Shown: positions 2,292-52,599, counted from the first letter of the stretch. The stretch is 52,898 nucleotides of DNA from a virus (IMGVR_UViG_3300025030_000139:1-52898); one strand, 5' to 3'. Numbers and translations are program-made. The notes: generated by a model from the letters alone, not told the origin.

Positions 2292-2422
2292 ATCATTCCC
2301 GCGCAGGCGGGAATCCATCATCCGTTGCCCCGCTGTTCACCTAACAAACATTACATACACTGCTTTTTCGTGTAGCTGTGCTACTTCCCCACCTGTGTCA
2401 TTCTGAGCGAAGCGAAGAATCT
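2292..2422. repeat. Intergenic palindromic elements TCATTCCCGCGCAGGCGGGAATCCA and GTCATTCTGAGCGAAGCGAAGAATCT
   Basis: Hairpin motifs; relatives at 5863-5915, 6406-6432 and 38989-39020. Confidence 0.75.
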
Positions 2423-2456
2423 CACTTTCCACTTCGCACTTCCCACTTTAGTCACT

Positions 2457-5400
2457 TCACACTTCCCACTTCCCTCCCATCCCGTTCCGCTCCGCCTCGT
2501 TCGCCATCTTCCCCAACCGCTGCGCGATGATCTCCGCCAGCCTCGCCTCGCTCATCCCCGGCGCCGCCGTCACATTGATCGTCGGCGCGATCGTAATCGA
2601 CCTCATCACTCCCCCCTCTCCCTGTGGGAGAGGGGCCGGGGGTGAGGTCTTAAACGCCTCCGCCGGCACCGCCTGCCGCCCTTCCCGCATCGCCTTGCTC
2701 AATACAAACTCATCGTCGTGCAGGTAATACAACCCCCGCATCACCTCCCCGCCGTACTGCCGGCCGGGCGCTCTCGCCGGGGCAGGCGCTCTCGCCGGGC
2801 CGCCTGCTGCCGCGGCCCCGCCCGAAATATCGGGTATCTCACCAACCGTCGTGATCTTGATCTTCACATCTATCAGGCGCGGGATCTTGTCAAGCGTGGT
2901 GATCACCTCGCCAACCCGCGTATTCGCCGCGGTCGACGCCGTCTGCACCACCACCATCGTGTCGCGGATCGCATTCTGCGCCCCGGTCGTCGCCGTCTGC
3001 ACCACCACCATCGTGTCGCGGATCGCATTCTGCGCCCCGGTCGTCGCCGTCTTCACCGCATCGGCCGCCGTCGTCGCCTTCCCCTTGGCCTCGTCGGTCT
3101 TTCGCCCGGCGTTCTGCCAACCCTCTCCCATATCAAGCAAATCTTGCTTGGAGAGTTTCTTGACTTTGGTCGACACCGCCTCCGTCCCGGACGCCACCCC
3201 GTCCAACGCACCTTTGCTATTCAGCAGAAGATCGTACCAGTTGGCCGCATCGGGGTTGGTCAAAGCGGCCACCAGTGTTTCCTGCTTGATCGCCGCGGTC
3301 AGAGCGCTCTGGGAATACAAATGCGTGATGTCATTCAGCGCCGAAGCCCGGCGATTGTATTCGTCCACGGACAAGGCACCAGTCTGCAATGCCTCTCCAA
3401 GTGCATCGAAGGCCGATCTCGCCTTGTCAACTTCACCCGCCCGCTGCATCGCGGCGATTTCCTCTTCCAGCGCGGTCTTGTGGTCCTGTTGAGCCTTCGT
3501 CGCCCCGCCCACCACGGCCGTGTGCTCGCCCAACTTCGTCGTCAGTTCTGCCTGTTGTTCTTTCAGGCCTGCCATGCGGGCGCCATATTCCGCGTCCGTC
3601 TCGTTCTTCTTCCGCTGCGCCAGCGTCACGTCTTCCGTGACGGCCGCCAGTTTCGCTTCGGCCGTCGCTCGTTCCTCGGCGCTCAGTTTCGCGTTCCGCA
3701 CCACAGCGTTGTGCGCCGGCCCCTGCGCCGCGATCTCTTTCTCCACGTCGCGCAGTTCCTTCATCTTCTCCGCCAGCGCCTTCTCTTGATCGGTGTATCC
3801 AATCGCCAGGCTGCGCGCATTCGTCACCGCGCCCCAACCGCTGGTGACTTTCTCCGTCAGATTATCTTGCGAATCGGCTAGATCGTCGGTCGCGCCATTA
3901 ACGATCATCATCGCAGCGGACATCTCGCTGTACGCTTCTGCCCGTTTCTTCGCCCCGAGCGCCAAATCCTCTTGTTGCTTCGCCAGTTTATATTGCGATC
4001 CCGTCATTTCGGATTGAAGACCAATGGCCTTCTTGATCTCATTGCTCACGGTTTTGGTTGCAGCGCTCAGTTCCCGCTGCACGCCTTGATACACTGCGCT
4101 GTTTTTCTGAATGCTGCGGTTGTGTTCTTGCTCCGCACGCATCTGTTTATACTCTGCTTCGGTCCTCTCATAATGGGCCATGACGGTTTTTTTGATTTCG
4201 CCGTTCATCCCCCGCGTCACTTCGATCAAGTTCCCTTCGGCGTCCACCTGCAGGCCGACCACATCCGCCGCCCGACGTACTTCCGCCTGATATTCTGCGT
4301 AGGTTCCCGCGCTCGAGCGCATCGCCACTTCGTGGTCGATCACCGCCTGGCGCAGCCGGTTCGTGCCATTGGTCACGATTTCGACGGCAGCTCCTGCTTG
4401 CTGCATGCGGTCATCGCGGTTGTTGGCCATCTTCAGCAGGTCTTCATTCGTCGCCCGCGAGGCATCGCCGATATTCTTAATAAGTCCGGCCACGAGAATC
4501 AATCCGGCGACGAGTAACCCTCCCGCGGCAAAGACCGTGCCCACCGTGGCCGCGGCCACGCCCATCGCATGGAGGCCCTGAACGATAAGCCCCAGGGTGG
4601 AAATGAACCGCCCGGCGATCGACAACAGCGGCCCGATCACCGCCGCCAGCGCGAAGAGTGTGACGATCGTCTGCTGCGTTCCCGACGACAGGTTCTTGAA
4701 CCACTCCGCCACGCTCTTGAGCGCATCCCCCAATTGCTTCAACACCGGCAGCACCGCCGGCAGCACGCTGCTCCCCAGCGTGATCAATAAGTCCTGCCCC
4801 TGTGCCAGTGCGGCCTGGAATTTGAACTTGGCCGTCTTGCTCGCCGCATCGAAGGCCTTATCCAGATCAGCGACCCCCGCCTTGGCGAGTTTCTGGAAGA
4901 TCGTGTTCGTCTTGTCCGCGTTCTCTCCCGTCAGCGACAGTAGCCCTCGGAAACCCCGGATGTTCGGGAAGATCGCCGCCAATGCCTCGTCGTCGTCGCC
5001 GATACGCTCGCGCAGCGTGTTGAGCACCGCCAGCAATCCTTCTTCCCGGATTTGCTCGCGCAATCCCTTAGCGGATAGCCCTACGCTTTCCAGTGTATCG
5101 CTCGCCTGCTCGCTCGGCTTCAACAGCGCCGTCATGATGCCGGACAGGTTCGTCGCGCTTTCTGCCGCATCAAACCCCACCAGCGTTTGCGCCGCCAGCG
5201 CCGCGCTCACCTGGTCGAACGAAATCCCCAACTGCGCTGCGATTGGGATCACGCGCCCCAGCGCCGGCGCGATCTCGTTAGCCTCGCCCTTCCCCTCGCG
5301 CACCGCCGCCACCAGGATGCCCGTCGCCGTCCCGGCATCCAGGTTGCTGTCCGCGTAGGCGTTCAGCGCGCTTGTCACCGCGTCCGCCACGATCTGCGTA

Positions 5401-5852
5401 TCGCCCAGACCCGCGCTCGCCGCCTTCGCGCTCTGCGTCAGCACGTCCATCGCCTTCGCGTCGTCGATGCCCGCGCTGGTGATGAAGTACAGCGCCTTCG
5501 CCAGTTCTGTCGGCGCCTTGCCGACCTTCGGCCCCAGGTCCAAAATCTGGTCCGACCACGCCTTAACCTGCTCCTGGCTCTTCCCGACCAGCCCCTCGAT
5601 CTGGCTCATCGACGATTCGAAGTCCATCGCCATCTTCGCGCTGGCCGCGCCCACTGCCACGATCGGCAGCGTCACGTCCCGCGACAACTGATCGCCGGCG
5701 CTCTTCATCTTGTCGCCGACCTTCTTCAGCTTGTCGCCCGTCGCGGAAAGTTTCCCCTCGAACTCGCGCAGCTTATCGCCCACCTTGGCCAGATTGTCCA
5801 GGGTGGTGCTGACATCAATTAAAATCTTCCCGTAAGCGCTGCCTAGTAGCAT
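2457..5852 (-). CDS. Tape measure protein (TP901-like), 1131 aa
   Basis: Ala-rich helical sequence with motif AMDFESSMSQIEG...ELAKALYFITSAG and a central hydrophobic segment; located in the tail operon. Confidence 0.95.
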   Translation of the reverse strand: MLLGSAYGKILIDVSTTLDNLAKVGDKLREFEGKLSATGDKLKKVGDKMKSAGDQLSRDVTLPIVAVGAASAKMAMDFESSMSQIEGLVGKSQEQVKAWSDQILDLGPKVGKAPTELAKALYFITSAGIDDAKAMDVLTQSAKAASAGLGDTQIVADAVTSALNAYADSNLDAGTATGILVAAVREGKGEANEIAPALGRVIPIAAQLGISFDQVSAALAAQTLVGFDAAESATNLSGIMTALLKPSEQASDTLESVGLSAKGLREQIREEGLLAVLNTLRERIGDDDEALAAIFPNIRGFRGLLSLTGENADKTNTIFQKLAKAGVADLDKAFDAASKTAKFKFQAALAQGQDLLITLGSSVLPAVLPVLKQLGDALKSVAEWFKNLSSGTQQTIVTLFALAAVIGPLLSIAGRFISTLGLIVQGLHAMGVAAATVGTVFAAGGLLVAGLILVAGLIKNIGDASRATNEDLLKMANNRDDRMQQAGAAVEIVTNGTNRLRQAVIDHEVAMRSSAGTYAEYQAEVRRAADVVGLQVDAEGNLIEVTRGMNGEIKKTVMAHYERTEAEYKQMRAEQEHNRSIQKNSAVYQGVQRELSAATKTVSNEIKKAIGLQSEMTGSQYKLAKQQEDLALGAKKRAEAYSEMSAAMMIVNGATDDLADSQDNLTEKVTSGWGAVTNARSLAIGYTDQEKALAEKMKELRDVEKEIAAQGPAHNAVVRNAKLSAEERATAEAKLAAVTEDVTLAQRKKNETDAEYGARMAGLKEQQAELTTKLGEHTAVVGGATKAQQDHKTALEEEIAAMQRAGEVDKARSAFDALGEALQTGALSVDEYNRRASALNDITHLYSQSALTAAIKQETLVAALTNPDAANWYDLLLNSKGALDGVASGTEAVSTKVKKLSKQDLLDMGEGWQNAGRKTDEAKGKATTAADAVKTATTGAQNAIRDTMVVVQTATTGAQNAIRDTMVVVQTASTAANTRVGEVITTLDKIPRLIDVKIKITTVGEIPDISGGAAAAGGPARAPAPARAPGRQYGGEVMRGLYYLHDDEFVLSKAMREGRQAVPAEAFKTSPPAPLPQGEGGVMRSITIAPTINVTAAPGMSEARLAEIIAQRLGKMANEAERNGMGGKWEV
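2938..3050. repeat. 54-bp exact tandem duplication inside the tape measure gene (TATTGAQNAIRDTMVVVQ x2)
   Basis: Direct repeat visible in DNA and protein. Confidence 0.9.
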
Positions 5853-5915: not shown

Positions 5916-5950
5916 CCAACTTCACACTTCACACTTCTCACTTCCCACTT

Positions 5951-6394
5951 CTACCTCACCAACTCTTTCAGCATGTTTTCCAGCACCGGCAGATTCCCCT
6001 CGAACGTCGACACCACGATCGCATACCGCGCCCCGTGGCTCAGTTCAAGGTACTTCCCGTAATACATCGTGTGGCTCAGCGCCAGCATCAGCGTCCCGTG
6101 CGGCGCCCGCTCCTCCACCACATCCGCTTGGCTTCCCAGTGATGGAACATCGCCGCTGATAACTCCGACGATCGGCGGCAGCCCAAGCCCCTCCACCGCG
6201 AAGAACATCCCGTCGCGCGCATTGCCCGTCCGGTGTGTCCACGGTGCGCCCATCCGCGCCTCGTTCTGCATCTTCTGCCCCACGTAAGCCGCCACGGCGT
6301 GCACCGCCGCCAGCAGCTGCTTGCTGTAGAGGCCCAGGTTATTTTTTAAGACAGAGGGCGGCGTAACCCAATACGCCCCCGTGCTCACAGCCAT
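5951..6394 (-). CDS. HK97-gp10-like tail completion protein
   Basis: APWTHRTGNAR and YYGKYLEL motifs; tail operon. Confidence 0.7.
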   Translation of the reverse strand: MAVSTGAYWVTPPSVLKNNLGLYSKQLLAAVHAVAAYVGQKMQNEARMGAPWTHRTGNARDGMFFAVEGLGLPPIVGVISGDVPSLGSQADVVEERAPHGTLMLALSHTMYYGKYLELSHGARYAIVVSTFEGNLPVLENMLKELVR

Positions 6395-6469
6395 CTCACA
6401 CCTCCGTCATTGCGAGCGCAGCGAAGCAATCTCCTCATCACCTAATATCCCTTATCCCCACTTCGCACT

Positions 6470-6880
6470 TTAGTCACTTTCCACTTTAGTCACTTTCACC
6501 TCTCTCAGCATCGACACCGGATTCACTCCCCACCGTCCATTCACGTCAGGCTTGAACGGCGCCGCCTCGCAAATCACCCGCGCCTTGAACGTTTTGCTCG
6601 CCACGCCGTTCTTGAAATTGAAATCGACCCGCACGGTGATGTCGCGCGTCACCGGCGAGATTTCTTCTACTTCGCCGATTGCCGCGTCATTCAATCGCAT
6701 CCACGCGAAGCGCGCGCGCATCTCCTCGATCGGCTCGGACCGGCTCTTGATCCACGTGATCTGGCACAGCTCTGCCATCTCGCCCCAGCGCCGTTTCTTC
6801 CACGCCGCGATGAACGAGGCGAGCGCTTTCTCAGCCGTTCCATCGGTATAACCTTCTGGCTTGACCATTTCATCCCCCAT
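6470..6880 (-). CDS. Hypothetical protein (possibly NTF2-like fold)
   Basis: Co-directional 136-aa ORF overlapping the upstream stop. Confidence 0.65.
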   Translation of the reverse strand: MGDEMVKPEGYTDGTAEKALASFIAAWKKRRWGEMAELCQITWIKSRSEPIEEMRARFAWMRLNDAAIGEVEEISPVTRDITVRVDFNFKNGVASKTFKARVICEAAPFKPDVNGRWGVNPVSMLREVKVTKVESD

Positions 6881-10448: not shown

Positions 10449-10874
10449 TCACCTCAACCGGTACACCTCAAACCGGCTCACATCCATCGAGCACTGCAAG
10501 CCCTGATCCTCTTCGTCGTGGATGTCGTTCGCGTGCCGCACCTCCCACACCCGCTGCCCGCTCAACTTCTGCCGGTGCAGGTCCACGTACACCTTATCCA
10601 GCGCCGCCACGATTGTCGCGTGCCCGCTGCGCTGATACCCGAAGATGCTCACCATCATCCGGCTGCCCGTCCGGTGCGGCGGAATATCCGCCTCCCCGTC
10701 CACCTTGATCAGCAGGCACGGCAGGATTTCCTTGTTCGCGTCGAACGCCGCCGGCGCGCTCTGCCGCGTAATCTCGCCGATGTCCTCCGCCGCATAAATT
10801 CCGCCCGTCACCAGCGCCGTCAGAGAACTATCAGCAGCTAATAGTGATTTGATGCTCTGCGCGATCGTCGTCAT
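10449..10874 (-). CDS. Tail terminator-like protein
   Basis: N-terminal LAADSSLTALVTGGIY pattern; size and position. Confidence 0.65.
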   Translation of the reverse strand: MTTIAQSIKSLLAADSSLTALVTGGIYAAEDIGEITRQSAPAAFDANKEILPCLLIKVDGEADIPPHRTGSRMMVSIFGYQRSGHATIVAALDKVYVDLHRQKLSGQRVWEVRHANDIHDEEDQGLQCSMDVSRFEVYRLR

Positions 10875-14475: not shown

Positions 14476-14546
14476 AATCTTCGCTATCTAATGGCGGTTA
14501 GCTGTGCTACTCCCCTCCCCTTGTAGGGGAGGGGTTGGGGGTGAGG

Positions 14547-18636: not shown

Positions 18637-18675
18637 CTGCTTACCTAATATGCGTTAGGTGCTGAATAAAAACAC

Positions 18676-21992: not shown

Positions 21993-22075
21993 CCACTAAC
22001 CCACTGGCTGCACCCGATGGGTGCCAGGTTGCACCCCGCCCGGCATGACGTTTGTCGCTGCGCAGCTAATACCTC

Positions 22076-23797
22076 TTATTCAAACAGCGTTCCATTCGCT
22101 CGCAGCCGCTTCCCGTCCCGCACTGCCAACTCCAGCGTGCACAGCCTGCTCATCGCATTATTGATTCCCCCCGTCCCCGGCGCATACCCCGCCCGCTCCG
22201 CCAGGGCGTCCCGCTCGATCTCCGCCGGGTAAATCTCGATCAGCACGTCGAACGCCGCCCGCTCGGCCTTGCTCAGTTTACGCCGCCAGTAATCGATCAA
22301 ATCCTGCCCCGCCGGCAGCGGTTCAACCGGCCCCAGCGCATCCAGTCCATCATCTGTGATTTGCAGGTGCTCCCGGCCGCCGTGGATATACCGTCTGGAT
22401 CGCAGCGCCCCGATCGCATTGTTGAATCCGCCCGTCCCGATCGCATACCCGCTCAAGATCGCCACCTGGTTCAGCGTCCGGCCATCCGGGTACTGCGTCA
22501 GCACCGTCAAGATCGCCCGCTCTGCCCTCGGCAACCTCTCTCCCTCCCCTGTTCGCGCCGTTTGCGAATGGGGGAGGAGCGGGGTGGGGGTGAGGGCCAC
22601 GCCCTTCTCCCTATTAGGGAGAAGGGTTGGGGATGAGGGTCTAATCACCGGGGCTGAGGGTCTAATCTTCGTCGCCGCCTGAACCGCCTCCGTAATCGCC
22701 CGACTCACCCCGATCAACTGGTTCCCCACACCGACCAATTGGTCACTGACCGCCTCCAGCGCCTTGACTTCCCCATCCCGAAATATCGGCACCTCCACCC
22801 GCTCGACGATCGTCTCGATCTTCGGCACGGCTTGCGCCGTCTGAACCGGTCGCGTCGGCGCAGACCGCGCCATCATCTCGCGCTTCAAGCGATGAATCTC
22901 TTTCTGCATCGCCTCGATGGTTCGCACCTCCTCGTCGGCCTGTTTCGGAAGATCGCCGATCTGCGCCACCACCTCGCGGATCTTCTCCGAAGCGCGCGGC
23001 GCTTGTAGCAGGTGTCTCTGCCCGGCCTTGGGATGCGTCGTCTCCACCTCGTCCGATCGGAACCGCACCACCCCGTGCCCGCTCAGCGCCGGGCCGAACG
23101 CGAAGAACTCGCCCGGGTCCAGATCGCGCAGCGCCTGGCGATCGGCCTTGTTCATCCCCAGCAGATCGCCCGCCCGCTGTTGATCCACGTCGAGCCAGGT
23201 ACGCCCAATCACCACATTATTCGACTCCGCCGCGGCATCCTTGTGCAGCTTGCTCAAGCGCTGGGTGGACAGGATTCCCGCAAAGCCCCGCTTCCGGCCC
23301 TGGCTCATCATCGTGATGACGGCCTCGGTGGCCACCGACTCGCCGGCCGCTCTCTCCGGCGCGAACACGTGCGCCTCATCGAGCACCACCAGCAGCGGAT
23401 GCCATAGGTCGCGCCTCACGGTCATCAGCGCTTCCAGGAATCGCTTCACGAACTCGCGACGCTCGTGCAGCTTCAGATCGTACAGATCGACGATCGCGCT
23501 GATGCCGACCTCGCATAGTTTCCGCGCCAGCAGCGCCGCCGATCGCAGGTCCGTGGCCAGCTCGCCCCCCTGCCCCACCAGCGCCATATCCACCTTCTCG
23601 CGCAGCGTCGCAAATTCCCCCTCCGGATCGAGCACGATCGTCTGCACCTTGCCCGCCGTCCGCTCGCACATCAACCTCAGCAGCCAGCTCTTCCCGCCGC
23701 CGCTGTTCGCCTGGATCAGCATCCGCGTATCCACTAGCCGCGCCAGGTCGATTTTGACAGCGCCCTGCTCCGCTTTCCCGATCGTAAATGTCGTCAT
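22076..23797 (-). CDS. HerA/DUF87-like P-loop ATPase with C-terminal winged helices
   Basis: ANSGGGKS, VLDPEGEF, VVLDEAH, GRKRG and STQR motifs. Confidence 0.85.
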   Translation of the reverse strand: MTTFTIGKAEQGAVKIDLARLVDTRMLIQANSGGGKSWLLRLMCERTAGKVQTIVLDPEGEFATLREKVDMALVGQGGELATDLRSAALLARKLCEVGISAIVDLYDLKLHERREFVKRFLEALMTVRRDLWHPLLVVLDEAHVFAPERAAGESVATEAVITMMSQGRKRGFAGILSTQRLSKLHKDAAAESNNVVIGRTWLDVDQQRAGDLLGMNKADRQALRDLDPGEFFAFGPALSGHGVVRFRSDEVETTHPKAGQRHLLQAPRASEKIREVVAQIGDLPKQADEEVRTIEAMQKEIHRLKREMMARSAPTRPVQTAQAVPKIETIVERVEVPIFRDGEVKALEAVSDQLVGVGNQLIGVSRAITEAVQAATKIRPSAPVIRPSSPTLLPNREKGVALTPTPLLPHSQTARTGEGERLPRAERAILTVLTQYPDGRTLNQVAILSGYAIGTGGFNNAIGALRSRRYIHGGREHLQITDDGLDALGPVEPLPAGQDLIDYWRRKLSKAERAAFDVLIEIYPAEIERDALAERAGYAPGTGGINNAMSRLCTLELAVRDGKRLRANGTLFE

Positions 23798-23829
23798 GGT
23801 TACTGCGTATCTAATGAGGGTTAGCTGCA

Positions 23830-24297
23830 CTATATCCCGACATACAAATTCGAGAATACATTTCCCACCGCCGGCCCGACCAGCGCTAGAATCACGAGCA
23901 CCGTAATCGTCACCAGCGCCAACAGCAGCGCATACTCCACTACCCCCTGCCCTTCCTCCCCTCGCCCATTGGGAGAAGGATTGGGGGTGAGGGGTAATGC
24001 ATCCGCGTGCACCGTCGCCCACTGCGCCTTCAGATAATACCGGTGTCCATCATGGATCCGCTTCGCCGCCACATTCGGAACCGGCGATGGAAAATCCCGC
24101 GTCACTGTGCCCCATTCCCTCGCGCTGGGCCACGTGCTATCGCGCGAAATCTGTAGGTAGGTTTGCCCGTCCTTCACCATCACGTCCACCCGCAGGCCAT
24201 GCGCCAACGGCTGCCGCTGCGCCTGGCCGGGATGCTCCTCCGCCCGCTTGACCAATTGGTCGAGCGTTCGTGCGAGTCCGTGCTTCTCTTCGCTCAT
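23830..24297 (-). CDS. Soluble domain fused to a C-terminal Flp (type IVb/Tad) pilin
   Basis: C-terminal EEGQGVVEYALLLALVTITVLVILALVGPAVGNVFSNL matches the Flp G-X4-EY motif plus hydrophobic helix. Confidence 0.8.
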   Translation of the reverse strand: MSEEKHGLARTLDQLVKRAEEHPGQAQRQPLAHGLRVDVMVKDGQTYLQISRDSTWPSAREWGTVTRDFPSPVPNVAAKRIHDGHRYYLKAQWATVHADALPLTPNPSPNGRGEEGQGVVEYALLLALVTITVLVILALVGPAVGNVFSNLYVGI

Positions 24298-28596: not shown

Positions 28597-29122
28597 CGTC
28601 CACCTCGTCGCCGTCATCATCTCGCTTGTGCGGCAGACTGGCATCCATCTCTCTCGCCGCCTCAAGACTCAGATCGAACGCATCGTCAATCCGTTTATCC
28701 GCTGCCTCGTCCGTTGCCGCAATCTCAGGCAAGCTAATGTCACTTATCTCCGCAGCGACATCGTCCCCCTCGATCGCCGGCAGCTCCTCCCCCTCTCCCT
28801 TAAAGGGTTCATCCTTATCCGGCTCTCGATTACCAGGCTCTTCCTCGTCTGCGTCGGCCGTGATGCTCTTCGAATTGCCGGTCATCATATCTTTCACCGT
28901 CACCACCTGCGGATCGCGCCGGAGCACCGCCGCATACGCCCGATCCATCAGCGCATGCCGATCGGAAAATGCCCCCGTCAGCACCACCGGCATCTCGCCT
29001 TCCGGCGCCGCACTGATCACCAGCCGCCGCACCCCCTTCTTCGGCGGCAGAATCGTCGTGATGATCGTCAGCGCCTTCTCGTCTGGCTTCTGACTGCTGG
29101 CGACTGACTTCTTCTTACTCAT
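28589..29122 (-). CDS. PRTRC protein E-like protein with an acidic tail
   Basis: PVVLTG motif; directly upstream of the Ubl gene. Confidence 0.5.
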   Translation of the reverse strand: MSKKKSVASSQKPDEKALTIITTILPPKKGVRRLVISAAPEGEMPVVLTGAFSDRHALMDRAYAAVLRRDPQVVTVKDMMTGNSKSITADADEEEPGNREPDKDEPFKGEGEELPAIEGDDVAAEISDISLPEIAATDEAADKRIDDAFDLSLEAAREMDASLPHKRDDDGDEVDDG

Positions 29123-32144: not shown

Positions 32145-32194
32145 TTCACACTTTAGTCACTTCACACTTGCTTCACTAAGGTCTATTAGCTGCG

Positions 32195-32890
32195 CTATGG
32201 CTGATGCCCGAACGGGATCACAATCGCCCCGTTCACGTCGCCGCTAAATGACTGCGTGAATCCTCTCCTCCGCAGCGCAACGGCCACAACGACCGCTATC
32301 AGCGCCAGGAGGAACGCCGCGGCGAAAACCAGGGCGATGGCCTTGAACACTGTTACCTGATCTGATAGATTCGCGTTCGCGCGCTTCATCTGTCCGATCT
32401 GCGCTTGCTGCGTATAGAACTTCACCGCATAATCGTCCGCCGCTTGCGTCGCCTGCTTCGCGCGCTGGGCATTGTCCTGCGCCGTTTGAGAAGCGGCATC
32501 TGCCTGCTGCTGTGCGGCTGTGGCCATCGTCATTGCTTCATTGGCCATGGCGCTCGCCTCGCCGGCCAGCGCGCTCGCCTGTTGGCTTTCCAGCGCTTGC
32601 GCCTTCTGCTGTGCGGCTGCTGCCTGCTGTTGTGCTTCAGCCGCGCGCCGTTGCGCCGCGGCCGCGTTGGCTGCCGCTTGCTGTGCCGCATACGCGGCCG
32701 CGTTGGCATTGGCCTGGGCCTGCTGCGCGCTCGCATTCAAGGCCGCCGCCTGCTGTTGCGCCAGCGTGACCGGATCGATCGTCGGCTGAGGGGGAGGAGG
32801 TGGCGTCACCGGCCCCTGCGCGTGAGCCGGCGAGGCCAGCAGGCAGAACAGGACCAACACCAAAAGGAAAATGAAGAGGTAGCGCGTCAT
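32195..32890 (-). CDS. Exported Ala/Gln-rich coiled-coil protein with a C-terminal TM anchor
   Basis: Signal peptide ending AHA-Q, coiled coil, TM segment followed by RRR. Confidence 0.75.
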   Translation of the reverse strand: MTRYLFIFLLVLVLFCLLASPAHAQGPVTPPPPPQPTIDPVTLAQQQAAALNASAQQAQANANAAAYAAQQAAANAAAAQRRAAEAQQQAAAAQQKAQALESQQASALAGEASAMANEAMTMATAAQQQADAASQTAQDNAQRAKQATQAADDYAVKFYTQQAQIGQMKRANANLSDQVTVFKAIALVFAAAFLLALIAVVVAVALRRRGFTQSFSGDVNGAIVIPFGHQP

Positions 32891-34734: not shown

Positions 34735-34876
34735 ATGCTCTTTTTCATTTTGCACTTTCCACTTCGCACTTCGCACTTTAGTCACTTCACACTTTCCACT
34801 TCGCACTTCGCACTTTAGTCACTTCGCACTTCGCACTTCACACTTCACCATCTTCTGATGGGATAACGGTCATTAG

Positions 34877-35341
34877 CTATCCAGCGATGACCAATTGGTC
34901 AGCCGTCTTCATCGCCTCATCCGGATCGACCTCGAACGCCTTCGTCTCCGCGTTCCACTTCAGCACATTGAACCACCCGTCCAGGAATTGATAGTCATCT
35001 GGCGTCGCGATCACCGCCTCGCGTAGCGTGAACCCCATCACGCCGATCAGCCAATCCCGCACGATGTGCCAGGCTTGATCCTGTCGCTGTAATATCTCTG
35101 ACTTGCGCCCGTCCAGATCGTCGTTGTTGGGAAGTGTCTGCAGTCGCCCGATCGGGATGATGCAGAAATGCACGTCGCCCCAGACATCCGGTTGCGACAC
35201 GACGATCTCGTAGCGATCGACGCGCAGTCCGTACTGGCCCGGCTTGCCGGGCCGCGTGATCGGGCTGGCAAACACCGGCTTCTCCACCAGCATGGCTCTC
35301 GCCAAATCTTCCAGCGCAGCGTATCCGATGAAATTCGCCAT
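34877..35341 (-). CDS. Hypothetical protein
   Basis: GAGGAGG RBS, ATG at 35341. Confidence 0.65.
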   Translation of the reverse strand: MANFIGYAALEDLARAMLVEKPVFASPITRPGKPGQYGLRVDRYEIVVSQPDVWGDVHFCIIPIGRLQTLPNNDDLDGRKSEILQRQDQAWHIVRDWLIGVMGFTLREAVIATPDDYQFLDGWFNVLKWNAETKAFEVDPDEAMKTADQLVIAG

Positions 35342-38967: not shown

Positions 38968-39117
38968 CTCGTGCTATCCTGTCATCAAGTCATTCCCGCA
39001 TGTTGTTGGCGGGAATCCAGTATCCGTTGATTCGCTGTCTATCCGTTGACACTGCTCAGCGAACCTAAACCGCATTAGCTGCGCAGGATTACATTGTTCA
39101 TTGATCATTGATCATTG

Positions 39118-40398
39118 CTAAAGCGCCTTCCGATGATTCTTCAAAATCCGATGCGCCCCAATCTTGTCGCTCACCCGGTTCACCGCATCGCTCATCCCCT
39201 CTACCTTCTTCGACGTGTAGATCAGCGTCGTCGCCAGGTTCCTGTGCCCCAGCTGCCGCTGCACCTCGTCGATGCGCGCCCCTTCTTCCAGCATCTGCTC
39301 TGCCAGCCCGTGCCGCAGGCTGTGAATACAATACTTCCCCTTGATCTTCGCCTTGTGCAGATACATCTGGAAGATCCGATTGACCTCGCTGATCGACAGC
39401 GGGCTCGTGCCCGGCGCCCAGTCCTCATGGCCCAGCCGCTTCGCCCGATCGGACGTGGCCGTGAAGATATATTCGTCGTCGCCCATCGTTTCCAGCCGTC
39501 CCGCCGCGGCCAGGTAATCGGTGATCGCCTCCCACACATCCGGCGCCACCTCGTCCTTCTTCCCCTCCACGTGATGCTTGCCGCGCCACGTCTGCCACAC
39601 CCGCCCGTCCACGTCAACCTTGAAATCCCCGAACTTCGCCGTGCGCACCTCGCTGTTCCGCCGGCCCGTCAACGCATACGTCATCAACAGCGCCAGGTGC
39701 ATCGCGCCCTGCGCCGTATCCGTCGGGATCGCGCTCAGCAGCCGGTTCGTCTCGTCCGGCGTCATCCCCTCCCGCTCGAACAAAATCTCGAACTTCGGCC
39801 GCGACACCGCCGCAAATGGATTGACCCGATCGAACAGCATCGCCTCGACGCCGCCCTGATAGATCGGGTAGGTGGCCGCCTTGGCGTAATACGACGACAG
39901 CACCGCGATCGCATTCGCGATCGACTTCGGGCTGAGCGCCTTGTCCGTTTTGGTGTTGGCCTGCAGCATCTTGCCCCGCTTCCCGATGCGCTGCTTTTTC
40001 CCCACTGCGTGCGTCCGGTTCTCCAATCGCACCTTGTACGCATTCGCCGCGCGCGCGTCCACATTCCACGGCTTCACCGGCGACGCATCGATCACATTCG
40101 CGATCCGCCGCGCCCGCTCGATGTCCGTCTCGAACGGCATCGCCTCGAACCGCCCGGCGGGGTCGTATCCGAAGAAGTCCAGCCACACATCGAAGTATCG
40201 TTCCTGGCTGCGCACACTCTGCAGCCGATCGTTGTGCCACAGCCACATCACCGTGAACTCGGCCCAATACTGGACCTGCTCCACGTAAGTGCGCTGCTGC
40301 GTCTGCCCGTTCGACCCGGCAACCTGCACCCCGTCGCCAAACAACGTGACGGAATAGTCTTCACCTTGCTCGACAATGAGTTTCAACTGCTCTTCCAT
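39118..40398 (-). CDS. Second tyrosine recombinase (Xer-like) in the early operon
   Basis: TGRRNSE, RGK, HSLRH and LGHRNLATTLIY catalytic motifs. Confidence 0.92.
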   Translation of the reverse strand: MEEQLKLIVEQGEDYSVTLFGDGVQVAGSNGQTQQRTYVEQVQYWAEFTVMWLWHNDRLQSVRSQERYFDVWLDFFGYDPAGRFEAMPFETDIERARRIANVIDASPVKPWNVDARAANAYKVRLENRTHAVGKKQRIGKRGKMLQANTKTDKALSPKSIANAIAVLSSYYAKAATYPIYQGGVEAMLFDRVNPFAAVSRPKFEILFEREGMTPDETNRLLSAIPTDTAQGAMHLALLMTYALTGRRNSEVRTAKFGDFKVDVDGRVWQTWRGKHHVEGKKDEVAPDVWEAITDYLAAAGRLETMGDDEYIFTATSDRAKRLGHEDWAPGTSPLSISEVNRIFQMYLHKAKIKGKYCIHSLRHGLAEQMLEEGARIDEVQRQLGHRNLATTLIYTSKKVEGMSDAVNRVSDKIGAHRILKNHRKAL

Positions 40399-42959: not shown

Positions 42960-43048
42960 ATCGCTCATCACCTAATTATTATTAGCTACGCTAACTAAAA
43001 ATTTAAGGCAAAATTAAGCATTATGCAAAGCATTTGCTCGTCATTCTG

Positions 43049-44063: not shown

Positions 44064-44106
44064 CTGTTAACCGATGGGTTCCTGGTTCGAGTCCAGGCTG
44101 CGGAGC
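44064..44106 (+). other. attP core identical in form to the 3' half of tRNA-Asn(GTT)
   Basis: CTGTTAA anticodon loop, CCTGGTTCGAGTCCAGG T-arm and 3' acceptor strand; no 5' half; adjacent to the integrase. Confidence 0.88.
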
Positions 44107-44279
44107 TTTCATACGAGAATCTGCCGCCGCTTGCCCGGCGCCGGCAACCGATCGCCCATCGGTCGTTTTTTCGGGGTTCTCCGGTTGGGTACATACGGTG
44201 TCCTTTCCCGTATAAAAAAAACGCTTGTTCCGCTGGATAGCTAATGATGCTTAGCGAAGCAAGCAACCGGAGGCCCATA

Positions 44280-45227
44280 ATGTCCAACATCGCGTTACAA
44301 CACGCACTCACCCTCTCGCAAGCCATCGAAGGCGCCGTCATCGCCGCCCAGGCCCGCCGCCTCAGCGACAACACCATCCGCGAATACACCCATTATTACC
44401 GTAAGCTACAGACCTTCTACGCCCCGATCGATCCGCCCTTCATCTCGATCGATCGCGCGCAGCTGCAGCAGTTCATCAACAGCCTGACCGGGCTGTCGAA
44501 CAAATCGATCAGCAACGTCCGCGTCTCGCTCCTCTCCATGTGGCGTTGGGCCGTCTCGTTCGGCCTCACGGACATCAATGCCGCCCGGCAGATCGAACCC
44601 ATCAAGTCCGAGGTTCGCGCCGTTCATCCCTTCACCAAGACCGACGTGCAGGCCATGCTCTACGCCGTCGAAAAATCCAGGCCCTACACGCGCCCCGGCA
44701 AAGGAACCTGCTCGCACACTGCGCACCAATATCTGCGCAACAAGGCCATCATCTACCTGCTGCTCGATACCGGCCTGCGCAGTTCCGAACTGTGCGATCT
44801 GCAGATCAAACACGCCGACAAAAAAAACCTTCGCCTGAAAGTCTTCGGCAAGGGCGCGAAAGAACGGATCGTCCCATTCTCCTCTTCCACCGCTCTACAT
44901 CTCTGGCGCTACCTCGCCACTCGGCCCGATGCCTCCCCCGACGATTACCTCTTCGCCACCTCCGGCGATCGCCGTCTCGACAACCACAACCTCTACCACG
45001 CCCTCAAACTCATCGGCGAGCGCGCCGGCGTTGCCGACGTGCACCCGCACAGGTTTCGTCACACTTTTGCAATCAACTTTCTGCGCAACGGCGGAAACGT
45101 CTACACCCTCAAGGAAATCCTCGGCCACGCCTCGCTCAAAATGTGCCTGCGCTACCTTGAAATTGCCCAGGCCGACGTCGAAGCCAACTACCGCCTGGCC
45201 AGCCCCGTCAAAAACTGGGGCCTCTAA
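44280..45227 (+). CDS. int: Phage integrase (tyrosine recombinase)
   Basis: DTGLRSSEL, GKGAKER, HPHRFRHTFA and LGH...Y motifs; next to attP. Confidence 0.95.
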   Translation: MSNIALQHALTLSQAIEGAVIAAQARRLSDNTIREYTHYYRKLQTFYAPIDPPFISIDRAQLQQFINSLTGLSNKSISNVRVSLLSMWRWAVSFGLTDINAARQIEPIKSEVRAVHPFTKTDVQAMLYAVEKSRPYTRPGKGTCSHTAHQYLRNKAIIYLLLDTGLRSSELCDLQIKHADKKNLRLKVFGKGAKERIVPFSSSTALHLWRYLATRPDASPDDYLFATSGDRRLDNHNLYHALKLIGERAGVADVHPHRFRHTFAINFLRNGGNVYTLKEILGHASLKMCLRYLEIAQADVEANYRLASPVKNWGL

Positions 45228-45264: not shown

Positions 45265-45293
45265 TTGACCATACACGCTAACGGGTATACAAT
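45265..45293 (+). promoter_or_regulatory. Near-consensus sigma70 promoter
   Basis: TTGACC-N17-TACAAT. Confidence 0.65.
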
Positions 45294-45316
45294 AAGAGTG
45301 GCACAGGAGGTACCCC

Positions 45317-45728: not shown

Positions 45729-45734
45729 CGTTTG

Positions 45735-46145
45735 TTATGCTTCCAACAACCATGCCAGCGCCTCACCCTCGTCGTTGAATGCCCGCATGTCGTCGTATCC
45801 CATTCCGCGCAGTGCGCCATTGAGGAAGCGTACTCGCTCTTCTGGAAAATTTCCGTTGACGTAGGCCACCCGCGTTCCCTTAAATGCCTTAACCGCGAGC
45901 TTCGCATGATCGGATAATTCTGAAATGGCATGATGATCGCGCGACGTCCGTTTGAGCACGACCAAGAAGTGTGTGACATTGACTTGTTCCCCTAACAACC
46001 TGAACATGAGCATGTAATCATAGACCTGATCGATCGCCAAAAAATGGTTCTTGTTTTTCTCGCGGCGAAATTCGCACCGGATGTATTCGATCTGGGTCTC
46101 ATGGTCGATCAGCCGTTCATAGGTCATCCAGACGTTCGCGCTCAT
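45735..46145 (-). CDS. STAS/SpoIIAA-like protein
   Basis: RVAYV...MRAFNDEGEALAWL C-terminal motif. Confidence 0.65.
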   Translation of the reverse strand: MSANVWMTYERLIDHETQIEYIRCEFRREKNKNHFLAIDQVYDYMLMFRLLGEQVNVTHFLVVLKRTSRDHHAISELSDHAKLAVKAFKGTRVAYVNGNFPEERVRFLNGALRGMGYDDMRAFNDEGEALAWLLEA

Positions 46146-46642
46146 GGCTTGCCGGACACCAGTGCACTGAGCAGCAGCGTGAGGACGGACGTGACTGCCG
46201 AAATAATCCCCACGGCAACCACCTGCGATCGCGTGATGCGTGCTGCCTGGATCGTCGAATCCTCGCGATGAATCGTGTCGAGTTTTCTCTCGAATCTCAG
46301 GAAGCGCTCGTCGATGCTATCGTTCAACCGCTCGATGCTCGTTTGAAACACCGCGCTCACCTCTCGAAACTGTGCGGTAATGCGCTCGTAGTCGGATGTG
46401 ACCATCGTCGTGCGCAAGTCGAAGAGTTCCTTGGCGCGTTCGATCGTCTCATTGCTGTTTCTGCCGTGCACGGCCAGCAGCGTCTTGAGTTGCTCGATCT
46501 CGGCCGTGTGCAGTGTCAACTGTCGCTGACTCTCGATCTGCGCGTCCTGCAGCGACTCGAAAAATTGCGCCAGATAAGCGGGGGTCTTGAATTCGCCCGA
46601 TCCGGGCTTCGGGCCGCTGGGAGAGGGTTGCGTGTCGGTCAT
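46142..46642 (-). CDS. Coiled-coil protein with a C-terminal TM (holin-like)
   Basis: Follows the endolysin gene; single C-terminal TM. Confidence 0.55.
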   Translation of the reverse strand: MTDTQPSPSGPKPGSGEFKTPAYLAQFFESLQDAQIESQRQLTLHTAEIEQLKTLLAVHGRNSNETIERAKELFDLRTTMVTSDYERITAQFREVSAVFQTSIERLNDSIDERFLRFERKLDTIHREDSTIQAARITRSQVVAVGIISAVTSVLTLLLSALVSGKP

Positions 46643-46645
46643 GGC

Positions 46646-47281
46646 TCATTGCGGTAATTTGATCCACAACAGCGGATCGACCGCGCCTTTCAGCGCTAAT
46701 CCGCAGCCGCGCGGGACGGTCGACACTGCACTGTCCAGCACGGTAATATGCAGGTGAGGCGCGGTGCTGTTGCCGCTCTTCAATTTGTCTTTTTTATCTC
46801 CGCCCGATGCGCCGATGACCTGACCCTGTTTCACGATCTGCCCGCTGCTAACATCTGCCCGGCTAAGATGAGCATAGCACGTCTTAATTGTTCTCCCTTG
46901 GAATTCGTGTCTGATCCAGATACGCAGACCGTAATCCTTGCCGATGCGCGCATCTTCCACGATGCCATCATACATACAATGCACGGTGCGTCCTACCGTC
47001 GCGGAAAAATCGATCCCTTCGTGATCGAACGTTGGCCTCTGCTCGCCAAATCGAGACGTGATCCTGAGTGGATAATCTGCCAGTGGGTAAATGAAAGGCA
47101 GCGCTATAACGGGCGGCTGTGCTGGAATTCCCGCCCGGGCCTGCGCATAAGCATCCAGCATCTCGTCAATTTGCGTATTCGCCATCCGCTTGAACTCCAG
47201 CAGCAGATTGCCCAGCCGGACGAACTCCCCTTCATCGCCCATCGATCCCTGTCTACTTGTTTCCTTGTTTGCTTCATTCAT
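46646..47281 (-). CDS. M23 metallopeptidase, probable endolysin
   Basis: HEGIDF, YAHL and GNSTAPHLH motifs. Confidence 0.9.
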   Translation of the reverse strand: MNEANKETSRQGSMGDEGEFVRLGNLLLEFKRMANTQIDEMLDAYAQARAGIPAQPPVIALPFIYPLADYPLRITSRFGEQRPTFDHEGIDFSATVGRTVHCMYDGIVEDARIGKDYGLRIWIRHEFQGRTIKTCYAHLSRADVSSGQIVKQGQVIGASGGDKKDKLKSGNSTAPHLHITVLDSAVSTVPRGCGLALKGAVDPLLWIKLPQ

Positions 47282-47289
47282 CGCAAGCC

Positions 47290-47718
47290 TCACTTTTCTA
47301 TCAACTGATTCAACTTCACCCACCCCACCATCGGATCGATCACCTGCCCCCACCCGACGTATCTCTCGTCCACCTCCACCCGGATCGGCGCCAGATACCC
47401 GATCTGCCCGACGACCGGCTCATTCTCGTCCGGCGCCTGATACACCTTCAACGTCGGCTTCATCGCCGCCAGGTATGTTTTCGCCTCGCGTGTCGGCGGG
47501 GGTGGCGGCGTCACCGGCGGGGGTGGCGGAGGGGGCGGCGTCACCGGAGGAGGGGGTGGCGGCGCCGGAGGGGGCTGAGGCAGCGTTTCGGACATCATCA
47601 CGGCCACCTGCGCAAAATCGCACTCGATGATCACGTGATTTCGGTCCTTCACCCTCGACGATAAATGCACCAAATGAATCGTCGCCCCGTCTGGATTCCC
47701 GATCGTCACCGTTTTCAT
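47290..47718 (-). CDS. Pro-rich protein with a C-terminal SH3b-like domain
   Basis: Poly-Pro linker; LKVYQAP...VVGQ...WGQV...GWV. Confidence 0.6.
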   Translation of the reverse strand: MKTVTIGNPDGATIHLVHLSSRVKDRNHVIIECDFAQVAVMMSETLPQPPPAPPPPPPVTPPPPPPPPVTPPPPPTREAKTYLAAMKPTLKVYQAPDENEPVVGQIGYLAPIRVEVDERYVGWGQVIDPMVGWVKLNQLIEK

Positions 47719-47735
47719 TGTGCTCCTAAGCCTAA

Positions 47736-48578
47736 TTAGCTATGCAGCCTCTCCCCTCTCCTCGTAGGAGAGGGGCCGGGGGTGAGGTGTCGTTCCCGCG
47801 TAGAGGTGAAGGTCATTTTTACCCCCGCCACCACTCCGCACATCCCCATCATCCACCACTGCCCCAACCAGGCCTCCGCCAGCCAGGCCAGCCACGATAC
47901 TGGAATCATCCATGCCGTCATCCCCGCCAGCAGCGTATAGTCATACGATCGGATAGCCGGGTTGAATGAGGTTACTGCCGTCACCCAATGCCAGCGCCGC
48001 GTCAGCGTCAGCGCCGCCACCACGCCAAACACCGCCACCGGCGCCACCGTCAACACTGCATTTGTCGCGCTGATAATCCGATCATCTGCCAGCACATTCC
48101 GCGCCCACAGCCCGATCCACTGCGGATACACGATCGTCGGCACGCCATAGATCAGCAGCACCAGCGCCGCCGTTTTTTTAAGCAGCGTGCGGTCGCTCAG
48201 CAATTGCGGTATCGCCAAAATGAACAATTGCGGCTTGAGCGATAGCAGTGCCAGGCTCCAAAATGTCCCCATCCGCCAACACGCCAGCAGCACAATATCG
48301 ATCTGGCCCAGCGCCAGCGTCTGCAGGATTGGCACATACCATATCCACCCCAGCGCCCGCCGCTTGAACATGATTACCAGCAGCACCGCCGATCCAACCA
48401 GCAGCGCAATCAACCCGACTTCTGGCGGAAATACGGCCAGCACCGCGAAGAACATCACCATCGGCAGCGGATACAGCGCCAGCGCCGAATAATGCCCCTG
48501 CCAAAACTCTTGCCCGATCCGGTAAAATATCGCGTAATCCGAGAACATGAAACAATCCCCATCTCCTGGTGGGATCAC
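47736..48578 (-). CDS. GT-C membrane glycosyltransferase (GT87/DUF2029-like)
   Basis: DYAIFY, YP.P, LGQID and LKPQL motifs; many TM segments. Confidence 0.7.
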   Translation of the reverse strand: MIPPGDGDCFMFSDYAIFYRIGQEFWQGHYSALALYPLPMVMFFAVLAVFPPEVGLIALLVGSAVLLVIMFKRRALGWIWYVPILQTLALGQIDIVLLACWRMGTFWSLALLSLKPQLFILAIPQLLSDRTLLKKTAALVLLIYGVPTIVYPQWIGLWARNVLADDRIISATNAVLTVAPVAVFGVVAALTLTRRWHWVTAVTSFNPAIRSYDYTLLAGMTAWMIPVSWLAWLAEAWLGQWWMMGMCGVVAGVKMTFTSTRERHLTPGPSPTRRGERLHS

Positions 48579-50940: not shown

Positions 50941-50997
50941 CCTTCACCCTCCGATCCCTTCCCACTTCGCACTTTAGTCACTTTCCACTTTAGTCAC

Positions 50998-52599
50998 TTA
51001 CCTCACCTTCCGATCGTCCAACAGCGCCCTTCTCGCCAGGTACACCGCCAAATGATCCGGCACCCCCAGTGTCAGTCTCACCGTCTCATTGCTCGGATCA
51101 TACGACGTGCCCGTGATCAGCGATGTCAACCCCGCGCCCGAGACCCCCACCACGTCGCCCAAAAAATTCTCGATGCGCACGCGCTGCCCGGCCAGCACCC
51201 GGCACACCGGAATCTCAGGCCCGGATGCGGTGCGGATCGTCCCCTTCACCACGATCGGCGCCGTAACCCTGTACTTCGCGTCCTTGTTCGCGGCCAGCAC
51301 GCGCCGCGCGTAATTCAGCGCCGTCGCCTGGCTCGCCGTCCCGGCATCCAGCACCAGATGCTGCTCGCCGTACAACGCGATCGACGCCGCGTCTTTCAAA
51401 TTCGCGTCGTCGTCCGGCGTCAGGATGATGTTGCGGTTATTCGCGTCGTCGCGGTATTTCACGACGATCCAGTTGAACACGCTGCCGATGACCGCGCGCT
51501 TGATCTCGAAACTGCCGCTCACATTCGGCTCGTCCAGTCTCAGCGCATAATCGGTATTAGCTAATGACGGATAAGCCTGAAAGCACAGCACCGGTTTGCC
51601 GTCCGGCGTGGCCGCGCGATCGCTGCTCACGAAATACACCGCCCACGGGTTGAACGAATCATCCCCGAACGCCGCCGCCCGGACCAGGAGGCTGTTGATC
51701 GCCTCTGGCCCATCGGTCAGGAACGACTCCAGCACGAATGCATTCGTGGCGATCTTGGACTCGTCGGCGTTGATCTCGCTCAGATGTGCCCGCACATCCT
51801 GGACCACGCTTGTCGGCGTGATGCCGCCCGTCTCGCTGTACACCGTCATCCCGCTGATCCGGCCGTACACCGCCGCCGCCGGAGTCTGGCTCGCATTGCT
51901 CATAAACTGGAACTGCAGCGCCTGGCGCGGTGTGCCCAGCGTCACATCGTGCGCGCTCGGCGTGCCGTCGCTCGTGTTGTTGAACACGTTGCTCGCGCCC
52001 ACCGTATCGCGCATCCGCGTCTCCCAACTCTGCCCGCTCGTCCGGTTTTTGCTGTTCGCCACGATCCGTTTGATCGTCTCGCCCGTCGGCATCGTGTACG
52101 CAAACGCCGCCACGATGTCCCCGTTCCCCCACGTCCGCGTCTGCGGCCCCACGCTGATCCGGTTCTCCCGATCGATGTTGACCAATTGGTCGTAGTCGTC
52201 GTTCTGCGGCTGCCGCACCCACACATCCTCGCTTAGGCGGATGTCCGCCCAGACCTTGTTCCACGTGCGCGCTAACAGCGCCCCCCACTGGCCCACACCC
52301 TCCAGCACCATGCCCTGCTCGCGCTCTTCCACGCGCAGCGCAATCTCGCCGATCACGCCCTCCCACACGATCACCAGCCCGTTGAAGATGGCCATGCGCT
52401 GCATCTCGCGCACCAGCCAGGCCCGCGTCACCTCGCGCGGCGCGAAGACCCGCGCCGGTCCGTACAACCCGCCCGGATAGAACGTGCTGAAGGACTCGAT
52501 GACAGCATTCTCGATCGAGCCGTCCACGTCCAGCACCGGCGTCGTGCCGCTGCTGTAAATGACCACGCGCAAATCGTTGCCTGAAATCTGCGGCGTCAT
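50998..52599 (-). CDS. Tail-tip hub (Tal-like) protein
   Basis: VWEGVI and ASIALYG motifs; follows the distal-tail-like gene. Confidence 0.7.
   Translation of the reverse strand: MTPQISGNDLRVVIYSSGTTPVLDVDGSIENAVIESFSTFYPGGLYGPARVFAPREVTRAWLVREMQRMAIFNGLVIVWEGVIGEIALRVEEREQGMVLEGVGQWGALLARTWNKVWADIRLSEDVWVRQPQNDDYDQLVNIDRENRISVGPQTRTWGNGDIVAAFAYTMPTGETIKRIVANSKNRTSGQSWETRMRDTVGASNVFNNTSDGTPSAHDVTLGTPRQALQFQFMSNASQTPAAAVYGRISGMTVYSETGGITPTSVVQDVRAHLSEINADESKIATNAFVLESFLTDGPEAINSLLVRAAAFGDDSFNPWAVYFVSSDRAATPDGKPVLCFQAYPSLANTDYALRLDEPNVSGSFEIKRAVIGSVFNWIVVKYRDDANNRNIILTPDDDANLKDAASIALYGEQHLVLDAGTASQATALNYARRVLAANKDAKYRVTAPIVVKGTIRTASGPEIPVCRVLAGQRVRIENFLGDVVGVSGAGLTSLITGTSYDPSNETVRLTLGVPDHLAVYLARRALLDDRKVR

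Follow-up and report, generated by a model that had tools for sequence, protein, structure and literature searches.

The 52,898-bp sequence IMGVR_UViG_3300025030_000139, a complete contig of 61% G+C that we call the window, is the genome of a tailed temperate phage. It carries fourteen copies of a 30-bp inverted repeat, here called dyad sites, and one decayed copy, and, judged from sequence, the best explanation is that a protein assembly with two-fold symmetry binds them. The reading we favor, tentatively and at somewhat less than an even chance, is that they would be core-type sites of the phage's own orphan tyrosine recombinase (39118..40398, minus strand), each pairing only with its own copy on another genome. 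A close rival would make them dispersed operators or roadblocks to transcription. Both dif/lox-type sites and dispersed phage operators are known kinds of element; what is new relative to an earlier, sequence-only reading of the window is that the sites are regularly spaced, the most unusual and most testable property of the set.

The earlier reading listed fourteen copies of TAA-N6-TTA, all of which are present and are the sole matches genome-wide. The enrichment it expected is strong: 100 dinucleotide-preserving shuffles gave 0.99±0.98 copies (maximum 4), and none reached 14. Other spacings gave few matches (N4, 1; N5, 2; N7, 1; N8, 1), as did the reversed pattern TTA-N6-TAA (1), and CTAA-N6-TTAG, seen 8 times with 0.05 expected, is the top enriched 4-mer dyad at gaps of 0-12. 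Alignment of the 28 arms gave the same consensus on both sides, TTAG[C/G]T-N3-C[A/T][G/A], so that the full element, laid out as 12-6-12 in 14/14 sites, reads CWG-N3-AGCTAA-N6-TTAGST-N3-CWG. T1, T2 and A3 occur in all 28 arms, which follows from the search pattern itself (though that pattern is about 14-fold enriched); G4 is found in 22, T6 in 21, C10 in 22, A11 in 20 (T in 8) and G12 in 17. The palindrome proposed earlier thus holds, but its extent was underestimated, since both arms, and not one, are conserved out to the outer CWG. Searched with up to three mismatches, the extended pattern has 27 matches (3.44±1.69 in shuffled sequence), 25 of them within the fourteen sites and often in both orientations; the other two are at 10836 and 27945.

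The half-sites of the earlier reading exist as hexamers where it placed them, but lone arms do not form an enriched class: outside the sites, five reach 11 bits or more on a position weight matrix, with 3.6±2.0 in total in the shuffles. Because isolated arms are not enriched, we take the pair of arms as the functional unit. One supposed half-site, 10836, is instead a near-complete but decayed site, with one good arm and a second in which TTT replaces TTA. The spacer is, as claimed, always 6 bp and always different. Among all 105 pairs of the fifteen sites none differs by one base or less, the minimum being two, with 0.97 such pairs expected by chance. The two arms of a site are usually unlike: exactly one is TTAGCT in 11/14 sites and both in none (P=0.035), the second arm mostly being TTAGGT or TTAGAT.

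The placement of the sites is also far from random. As the earlier reading had it, most lie at gene junctions, with 12/14 site centers non-coding in a genome that is 7.9% non-coding by our own map of open reading frames (ORFs; P=4.7e-12); the exceptions, 28732 and 51545, are intra-ORF. The upstream gene often stops in or just before the upstream arm (-18 to +3), and the next start codon follows 5 to 126 nt on. The TTAGCT arm is upstream relative to gene direction in 11/14 sites (P=0.029), or in 11/15 when 10836 is included (P=0.059), the series along the genome being - - (+) -. + - + - - - - + - -. The record reads as a circle, because a minus-strand ORF running from 2321 down to 1 closes 8 codons past the joined ends; no terminal repeat is present on the 52,898-bp record. 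On this circle the gaps between sites range from 1.3 to 8.0 kb around a mean of about 3.8 kb, with a coefficient of variation (CV) of 0.40 for the fourteen sites and 0.91 for random placement (P=3.5e-4; P=4e-4 when placement is restricted to junctions). The decayed site at 10836 halves the single 8-kb gap, bringing the CV down to 0.27. Expressed differently, a 4-kb segment contains a site for 90-97% of possible start points, as against 65-68% for random placement.

We name each site by the position at which its core begins. Site 2339 (2333..2362, core 2339-2356, minus strand) lies between the stop of the tape-measure gene and the next tail gene, and was oriented by its TTAGGT arm because no TTAGCT arm is present. 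Site 6440 (6434..6463, core 6440-6457, minus) is intergenic, directly after an array of heptamers described below. The possible fifteenth site (10830..10859, plus), which has TTTGAT for TTAGAT, falls within ORF 10449-10874, in the sole 8-kb gap. Site 14486 (14480..14509, minus) follows a GC-rich hairpin and lies 10 nt ahead of an ATG at 14475. Site 18643 (18637..18666), just beyond the stop of the terminase gene terL, has TTAGGT in both arms, so that its orientation is undefined, and is followed by a 107-nt heptamer array. Two sites bracket a minus-strand gene for a HerA-like ATPase: 22064 (22058..22087, plus) overlaps its stop codon and opposes its direction, and 23809 (23803..23832, minus), 11 nt ahead of its ATG (23797), matches the extended pattern exactly. 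Site 28732 (28726..28755, plus), within ORF 28589-29203, likewise opposes the gene. Sites 32174 (32168..32197, minus), at a gene junction, and 34861 (34855..34884, minus), which overlaps the TAG stop of 34877-35455, both precede heptamer arrays. The best-matching site, 39063 (39057..39086, minus, with the arm TTAGCTGCGCAG), is 32 nt beyond the stop of the orphan recombinase gene. Site 42970 (42964..42993, minus) is in an AT-rich gap after the stop of a plus-strand lipoprotein gene (42441-42959); an ORF that it would overlap (42120-42971, minus) was rejected as a gene because its GC1/2/3 values (G+C by codon position) are flat. Site 44239 (44233..44262, plus) lies between the phage attachment site attP and the integrase start (ATG 44280), site 47724 (47718..47747, minus) overlaps the TAA stop of 47736-48578 and is 5 nt before an ATG at 47718, and site 51545 (51539..51568, minus) lies within ORF 50998-52599. 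None is found between 39063 and 42970, a stretch that includes the cI/cro-type switch at about 41304-41401, in keeping with the earlier statement that this region has no copy.

The candidate binder of these sites is a 426-residue protein. The sequence-only reading had called it an orphan tyrosine recombinase with one site just past its stop, and this description stands. In profile comparison, its residues 118-407 match XerA, XerD and XerC with scores under the family cut-offs, and in a predicted structure (predicted local distance difference test score 68.6) its nearest folds are Cre, XerH and XerA over about 390 columns. We aligned it with 21 homologues, 56-85% identical and drawn from a protein collection, on contigs of up to 61 kb. 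Residues R246/R247, H359, R362, H385 and Y394, which make up the R/HxxR/H/Y signature, are invariant in 22/22 sequences; so is K274, one possible catalytic lysine. This invariance suggests that the protein is under selection as an enzyme and would need a substrate, and we rejected the idea of a dead, MrpR-like recombinase because the catalytic residues are retained. The dyad site whose arm matches best adjoins the end of its gene, a neighborhood with no second distinctive dyad. The stretch that separates the recombinase stop from site 39063 is filled by 3.7 copies of CAATGAT (39092-39117), which could be an accessory binding array. On the far side of the site is a hairpin, ATTCCCGC-N4-GCGGGAAT, found at 38989-39023 and again at about 2290-2320. 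In two soil runs the 35-nt piece at 38989-39023 reached a summed depth of 370-417 and was flanked on either side by many loose ends; it is a short element common in soil bacteria.

The phage encodes a second Xer-like protein, an integrase of 315 residues (44280..45227, plus) in the lysogeny module, which does not need the dyad sites because it has an unrelated attP of its own. The attP core (44064..44108, plus) is the 3´ half of a tRNA-Asn(GTT) gene, is unlike the dyad motif, and coincides with loose contig ends at 44064/44097; the dyad sites were rejected as attP sites of this integrase on this ground. We also considered whether the half-sites at 43905 and 43948 could be arm-type sites near attP and set this aside, lone arms not being enriched overall. 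A 43-nt piece of attP has exact matches in two metagenome-assembled genomes of Chloroflexota (61-63% G+C, one order), with no prophage beside the tRNA gene there, and because of these matches the host is probably a member of Chloroflexota.

That the recombinase binds and cuts at the dyad sites, and what recombination there would serve, we infer as follows. Each 12-bp arm would be clamped by one recombinase monomer, which would touch TTAGST beside the spacer and, a helical turn away on the outer side, CWG; the presence of a pair of conserved blocks in the arm, separated by one turn, suits a protein that clamps DNA with two domains. Strand exchange would take place across the 6-bp spacer, and the private spacers would prevent recombination between different sites, which would delete or invert essential genes. 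The partner would instead be the same site on a second copy of the genome, which could come from a sister molecule, from a relative infecting the same cell or from a terminal redundancy, and the outcome could be interconversion of monomers and multimers, cyclization of injected DNA, or crossovers fixed at gene junctions. Even spacing would place a site within reach in any stretch of about 4-5 kb, such as a terminal redundancy, which offers a rationale for the regularity, and the presence of sites in the lysogeny module and inside two ORFs would fit a whole-genome role. The fuller proposal, that some fifteen evenly spread lox/dif-like sites with private spacers serve RecA-independent cyclization of permuted, redundant DNA, the building and resolution of multimers for packaging, and crossovers between relatives at addressed junctions, by which modules could be exchanged with no ectopic loss of DNA, we consider rather unlikely as a whole.

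Several observations weigh against the recombinase. No phage is known to us in which an active recombinase serves many dispersed sites, and a literature search gave none among the matches listed. Unique spacers are permissive rather than diagnostic, because chance alone predicts only about one compatible pair. That one site adjoins the recombinase gene counts for little: given 14 sites at about 70 junctions, we estimate that a gene would flank a site in about a third of cases. The orientation bias (11/14) is not predicted by a recombination model, and it is predicted by a roadblock model. The geometry of CTAA-N6-TTAG is also that of operators bound by helix-turn-helix (HTH) proteins of the 434 type, and beyond TTA the arms have no likeness to those of dif. 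The large terminase subunit, TerL, which is of the gpA family, is 25-28% identical to the terminases of phages that we take to be fixed-ended, and this distant likeness leaves a permuted, terminally redundant genome hypothetical. Finally, the dyad motif is known from one genome only.

The earlier reading went further than we do, proposing that the sites recombine with one another and so divide the phage into exchangeable modules. This proposal is not supported: no two spacers are compatible, the orientations do not alternate, most sites are direct repeats around essential genes, and the assembled DNA is colinear across most of the sites considered. Near-identical DNA was found in groundwater and soil runs from 13 studies. 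Contigs from four public runs (four studies) are colinear with the window, with 0 differences, across 28732, 32174, 39063, 42970 and 44239, five of the seven sites considered; none bridging 34861 or 47724 is listed. Contigs hide rare forms, and allelic exchange would leave no trace in them. The sole joint near a site connects 34802 to 47749, but its sides are short (38-40 nt) and it joins repeat elements, a heptamer array to a hairpin repeat, and for these reasons it was not counted. The interpretation as a whole is partly supported, and a narrower idea survives, in which the only partner of a site would be its counterpart on a second copy of the genome.

An involvement of host Xer proteins, also suggested earlier together with a comparison to the host dif site, found no support in two genomes of the likely host order (5.6-6.6 Mb), which are maybe incomplete and perhaps not those of the true host. 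Each has two copies of CTAA-N6-TTAG, none with the outer arms, on which ground we rejected the dyad as host sequence; CATAA-N6-TTATG is absent from both. The density of CTAA-N6-TTAG in the phage is about 500 times that in these genomes. A reversed-pattern control gave about 60 matches there, as against 2 for CTAA-N6-TTAG, although this control is unfair in that it lacks stop-codon words.

CTAA-N6-TTAG is absent from two related viral contigs, G001 and G002, nor was a dyad set of comparable kind seen in G001. G001 (L004), of 35 kb and 60% G+C, has three distant genes in common with the phage and shows the same habit of placing repeat arrays before start codons with other units (AGAGATT/GGAGATT), together with one array of GAAGTG. 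In the viral_contigs collection, TAA-N6-TTAGCTGCGCAG had 12 single, unrelated matches and was not enriched. With TerL as query the sole matches were the phage itself, a pair of contigs (58-59% identity) that share no further gene with it, and one short metagenome piece; genome_contigs and INPHARED gave nothing. The recombinase and its 22-sequence alignment found nothing close in viral_contigs, nor did the recombinase find anything in INPHARED or among the Chloroflexota genomes searched (401 of the phylum, 401 of the class and 22 of the order). Three contigs (24048, 2370 and 2335 bp) appear to combine the recombinase with the gene that lies downstream of site 39063; other large contigs with the recombinase (61156, 48988, 19322 and 12591 bp, and others) show no homologue of the gene across the site. 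This hints at mosaicism somewhere near the junction. A relative of the product of 47736-48578 (minus) is 99% identical over 244/246 residues, and its C-terminal tail differs from 24 codons before the stop; the divergence begins about 70 nt before site 47724, outside the spacer, and the tail of the phage protein reads through a GC-rich hairpin element into the dyad arm. From the differences in recombinase neighbors and this divergent tail, junctions appear to be variable in this group of phages.

The close rival to the recombinase holds that a dimeric regulator of the phage, such as an XRE-type HTH protein, a protein resembling the LexA DNA-binding domain (38023-38337) or another small protein, would sit on the dyads and block or tune transcription along the leftward unit of about 48 kb and ahead of int. 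We regard this as a serious possibility, if one that we would not call probable. It would account naturally for the presence of 12/14 sites in short intergenic gaps, where they often cover the stop codon of the preceding gene and lie 5-126 nt ahead of the following start, and for the 11/14 sites that point along the gene direction (P=0.029). One consensus-like and one weaker arm (11/14 sites have a single TTAGCT) are usual for operators, sites 42970 and 44239 would halt read-through of the lysogeny operon into the NYN gene and int, and several DNA-binding proteins encoded by the phage have no known target. P1 C1 operators and the CIRs of phiC31 are precedents for dispersed phage operators. Yet the divergent switch at 41304-41401, with two XRE genes and sigma-70-like promoters, has no dyad, and no sigma-70-like promoter adjoins a site except one 72 bp from 22064. 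For a simple HTH dimer the footprint is long, at 30 bp and with a conserved block as far out as ±13-15; two or three sites are intra-ORF, and three oppose transcription; no HTH candidate fits the sites well. The stoperators of mycobacteriophages, as far as the available parts of PMC9283540 and PMC6550527 describe them, provide a further precedent. The operator and recombinase readings may also overlap, with the recombinase bound at all sites and recombining at few, because proteins of the integrase fold or Xer family are known to be bound at several dispersed sites without recombination.

Other explanations are far less probable. Regular spacing and dyad symmetry, together with sites in every module, ORF interiors included, would suit anchors of the parS, matS or XDS kind for a bridging, partition or SMC-interacting protein, which might organize the phage DNA into loops, each about 3.8 kb long; XerD unloads SMC when it occupies several XDS sites, which are dif-like (as cited in the accessible text of PMC11840125). 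We hold such an architectural role to be improbable, there being no ParA or ParB among the 58 products scanned against Pfam and no known precedent in a phage of this size, and partition is not needed because the phage integrates at a tRNA gene. Slightly less credible still are activator-dependent promoters or activator sites for middle or late transcription, one per gene block. The sites are located after hairpins and before 5´ leaders, and their orientation bias and even spacing resemble those of phage-specific promoters, but the element is two-fold symmetric, it has no -35/-10 at constant spacing (the hexamers found 17 nt before GCTAAT bear no resemblance to TTGACA), the start codon is only 5-11 nt off in three sites, and no phage RNA polymerase or sigma factor was seen among the products scanned. 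An ordinary sigma-70 promoter was rejected, since no promoter-scan match (-35/-10 at 16-18 bp) overlaps any site. We think it very unlikely that the sites bound pdif-like modules whose blocks are exchanged or inverted by host XerC/D: the 11/12-6-11/12 layout and the TAA/TTA inner ends are those of pdif, but the sites have 0/105 compatible spacer pairs, do not alternate in orientation, and as mostly direct repeats would delete essential genes; the lack of outer arms and of CATAA-N6-TTATG in the two likely-host-order genomes and the colinear contigs of four runs across 5/7 sites argue against it as well. Least credible of all is a role at the RNA level, in which a hairpin would terminate transcription, mark a processing site or act as an operator for translation. 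The sites are intergenic on the transcribed strand and weak stems are possible, but 34-nt windows fold at 0 to -9 kcal/mol (mean z -0.76) into structures that vary between sites, the recurring mismatch between arms (C-type versus G-type) is uncompensated, no Rfam family matches, and a terminator scan was not enriched, only 39063 scoring and through a different stem. An intrinsic terminator or structured RNA was rejected on the mean z, the variable folds and the lack of an Rfam match.

The proposal that the dyads are sites of the phage recombinase can be set beside known systems. The Xer-type architecture recognized earlier is borne out, in that the available portion of PMC13141974, with its pdif table, describes inverted arms of about 11-12 bp, a 6-bp spacer and TAA...TTA edges for the dif and pdif sites on which XerC-XerD act, including the Acinetobacter dif modules. 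Such sites, too, recur many times in a replicon, at the borders of gene blocks, and each combines two unlike arms. According to the same portion, pdif recombination was detected only between identical or one-mismatch spacers. The phage sites differ from these in arm sequence beyond TTA, in having no matching spacers, in their regular spacing and in the lack of any rearrangement seen. C/D modules alternate in orientation, whereas the phage sites do not, and the likely enzyme would be a single phage Xer-like protein rather than host XerC and XerD. Cre-loxP of phage P1 also combines a simple two-domain phage recombinase with a simple dyad, Cre, XerH and XerA being the closest folds to our modeled protein. 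P1 uses it for cyclization and multimer resolution, as proposed for the dyad sites, but P1 has one 13-8-13 site and the phage described here has 14 sites of 12-6-12 with their own spacers, known here from sequence.

Other dispersed elements provide partial parallels. The stoperators of Cluster A mycobacteriophages, bound by L5 gp71, also occur in many copies over about 50 kb, in short intergenic gaps and with an orientation bias that the dyad sites may share (available text of PMC9283540 and PMC6550527); they are asymmetric, about 13 bp long and bound by a monomer, with a copy at the early promoter, whereas the dyad is 30 bp long and absent from the switch. In SPbeta and phi3T, as far as the accessible parts of PMC10516654 and bioRxiv 10.1101/2025.11.27.690993 go, a protein of the tyrosine-recombinase fold, MrpR/SroF, binds the element SPBRE at about 9-10 intergenic places, and so, as is proposed here, a recombinase-fold protein of a phage has a repeated element dispersed in its own genome. 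By those parts, the catalytic residues are missing from MrpR/SroF, whose monomer recognizes an asymmetric promoter box of 15-26 bp; in our recombinase these residues are invariant, and the dyad site is symmetric. XDS sites of the B. subtilis terminus, as cited in the available text of PMC11840125, are several dif-like sites at which a Xer protein is bound without recombination, but they lie in the chromosome, where they cluster in ter and the bound protein is host XerD.

Dyad sites share junctions with two other kinds of repeat, in variable order. Fifteen arrays of (N)GAAGTG heptamers mixed with the 9-mer ACTAAAGTG, all on the coding (minus) strand, fill gene junctions and 5´ leaders; they lie at 2423-2474, 5925-5953, 6459-6498, 10882-10919, 12067-12129, 18526-18632, 21741-21780, 27266-27333, 29841-29871, 31742-31823, 32133-32172, 34753-34848, 36810-36896, 38251-38349 and 50963-51002. 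AAGTG occurs 141 times on the minus strand and 17 times on the plus strand, and no Rfam match was found for the arrays. Dispersed GC-rich hairpins, CCCCTCTCC(T)...AGGAGAGGGG, are present at 2613, 9302, 14512, 22602, 25175, 25785, 26364, 37600, 45230 and 47753, two of them directly upstream of sites 14486 and 47724, and look like a repetitive extragenic palindromic (REP-type) element of the host lineage. A 45-bp tandem repeat (2.1 copies, 43063-43156) with a hairpin in each copy separates site 42970 from the NYN gene and is followed by a strong terminator-like hairpin (43209-43233).

Most genes of the phage are on the minus strand, and the plus strand has a marked excess of C. Structural and packaging functions include the tape measure (2457-5852), a prohead protease fusion (15475-18528) and TerL (18676-20436), and a gene for an M23 peptidase is present in the genome. 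The early region on the minus strand contains a ubiquitin-like conjugation set, with a ThiF-type E1 (24620-25654), a JAB peptidase (25578-26588) and a Prok-E2_D protein (26443-27282). An IclR-type winged helix (Pfam HTH_IclR, E about 1e-4) lies at the C-terminus of both DnaB (30262-31716, minus) and a replication-type protein of 280 residues (35873-36715, minus). The divergent pair of XRE-type HTH genes (41022-41303 and 41402-41776) flanks the cI/cro-type switch, and the lysogeny module on the plus strand encodes two lipoproteins, the NYN protein and the Xer-like integrase. RNA datasets with near-identical sequence are not listed for 30000-39999.

Whichever protein binds the dyads, their even placement, about 3.8 kb apart, is a tangible feature that can be tested, and the pair of site and protein is small enough to be studied in E. 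coli. If the sites were operators, they would represent stoperator-like silencing with a symmetric 30-bp site, in Chloroflexota, whose phages are almost unstudied. If they are targets of the recombinase, this would be, to our knowledge, the first known phage with genome-wide, evenly spaced, self-only recombination sites, with a bearing on how permuted phage DNA may be circularized without host recombination and on the site-specific "boundary" machinery that may lie behind phage mosaicism.

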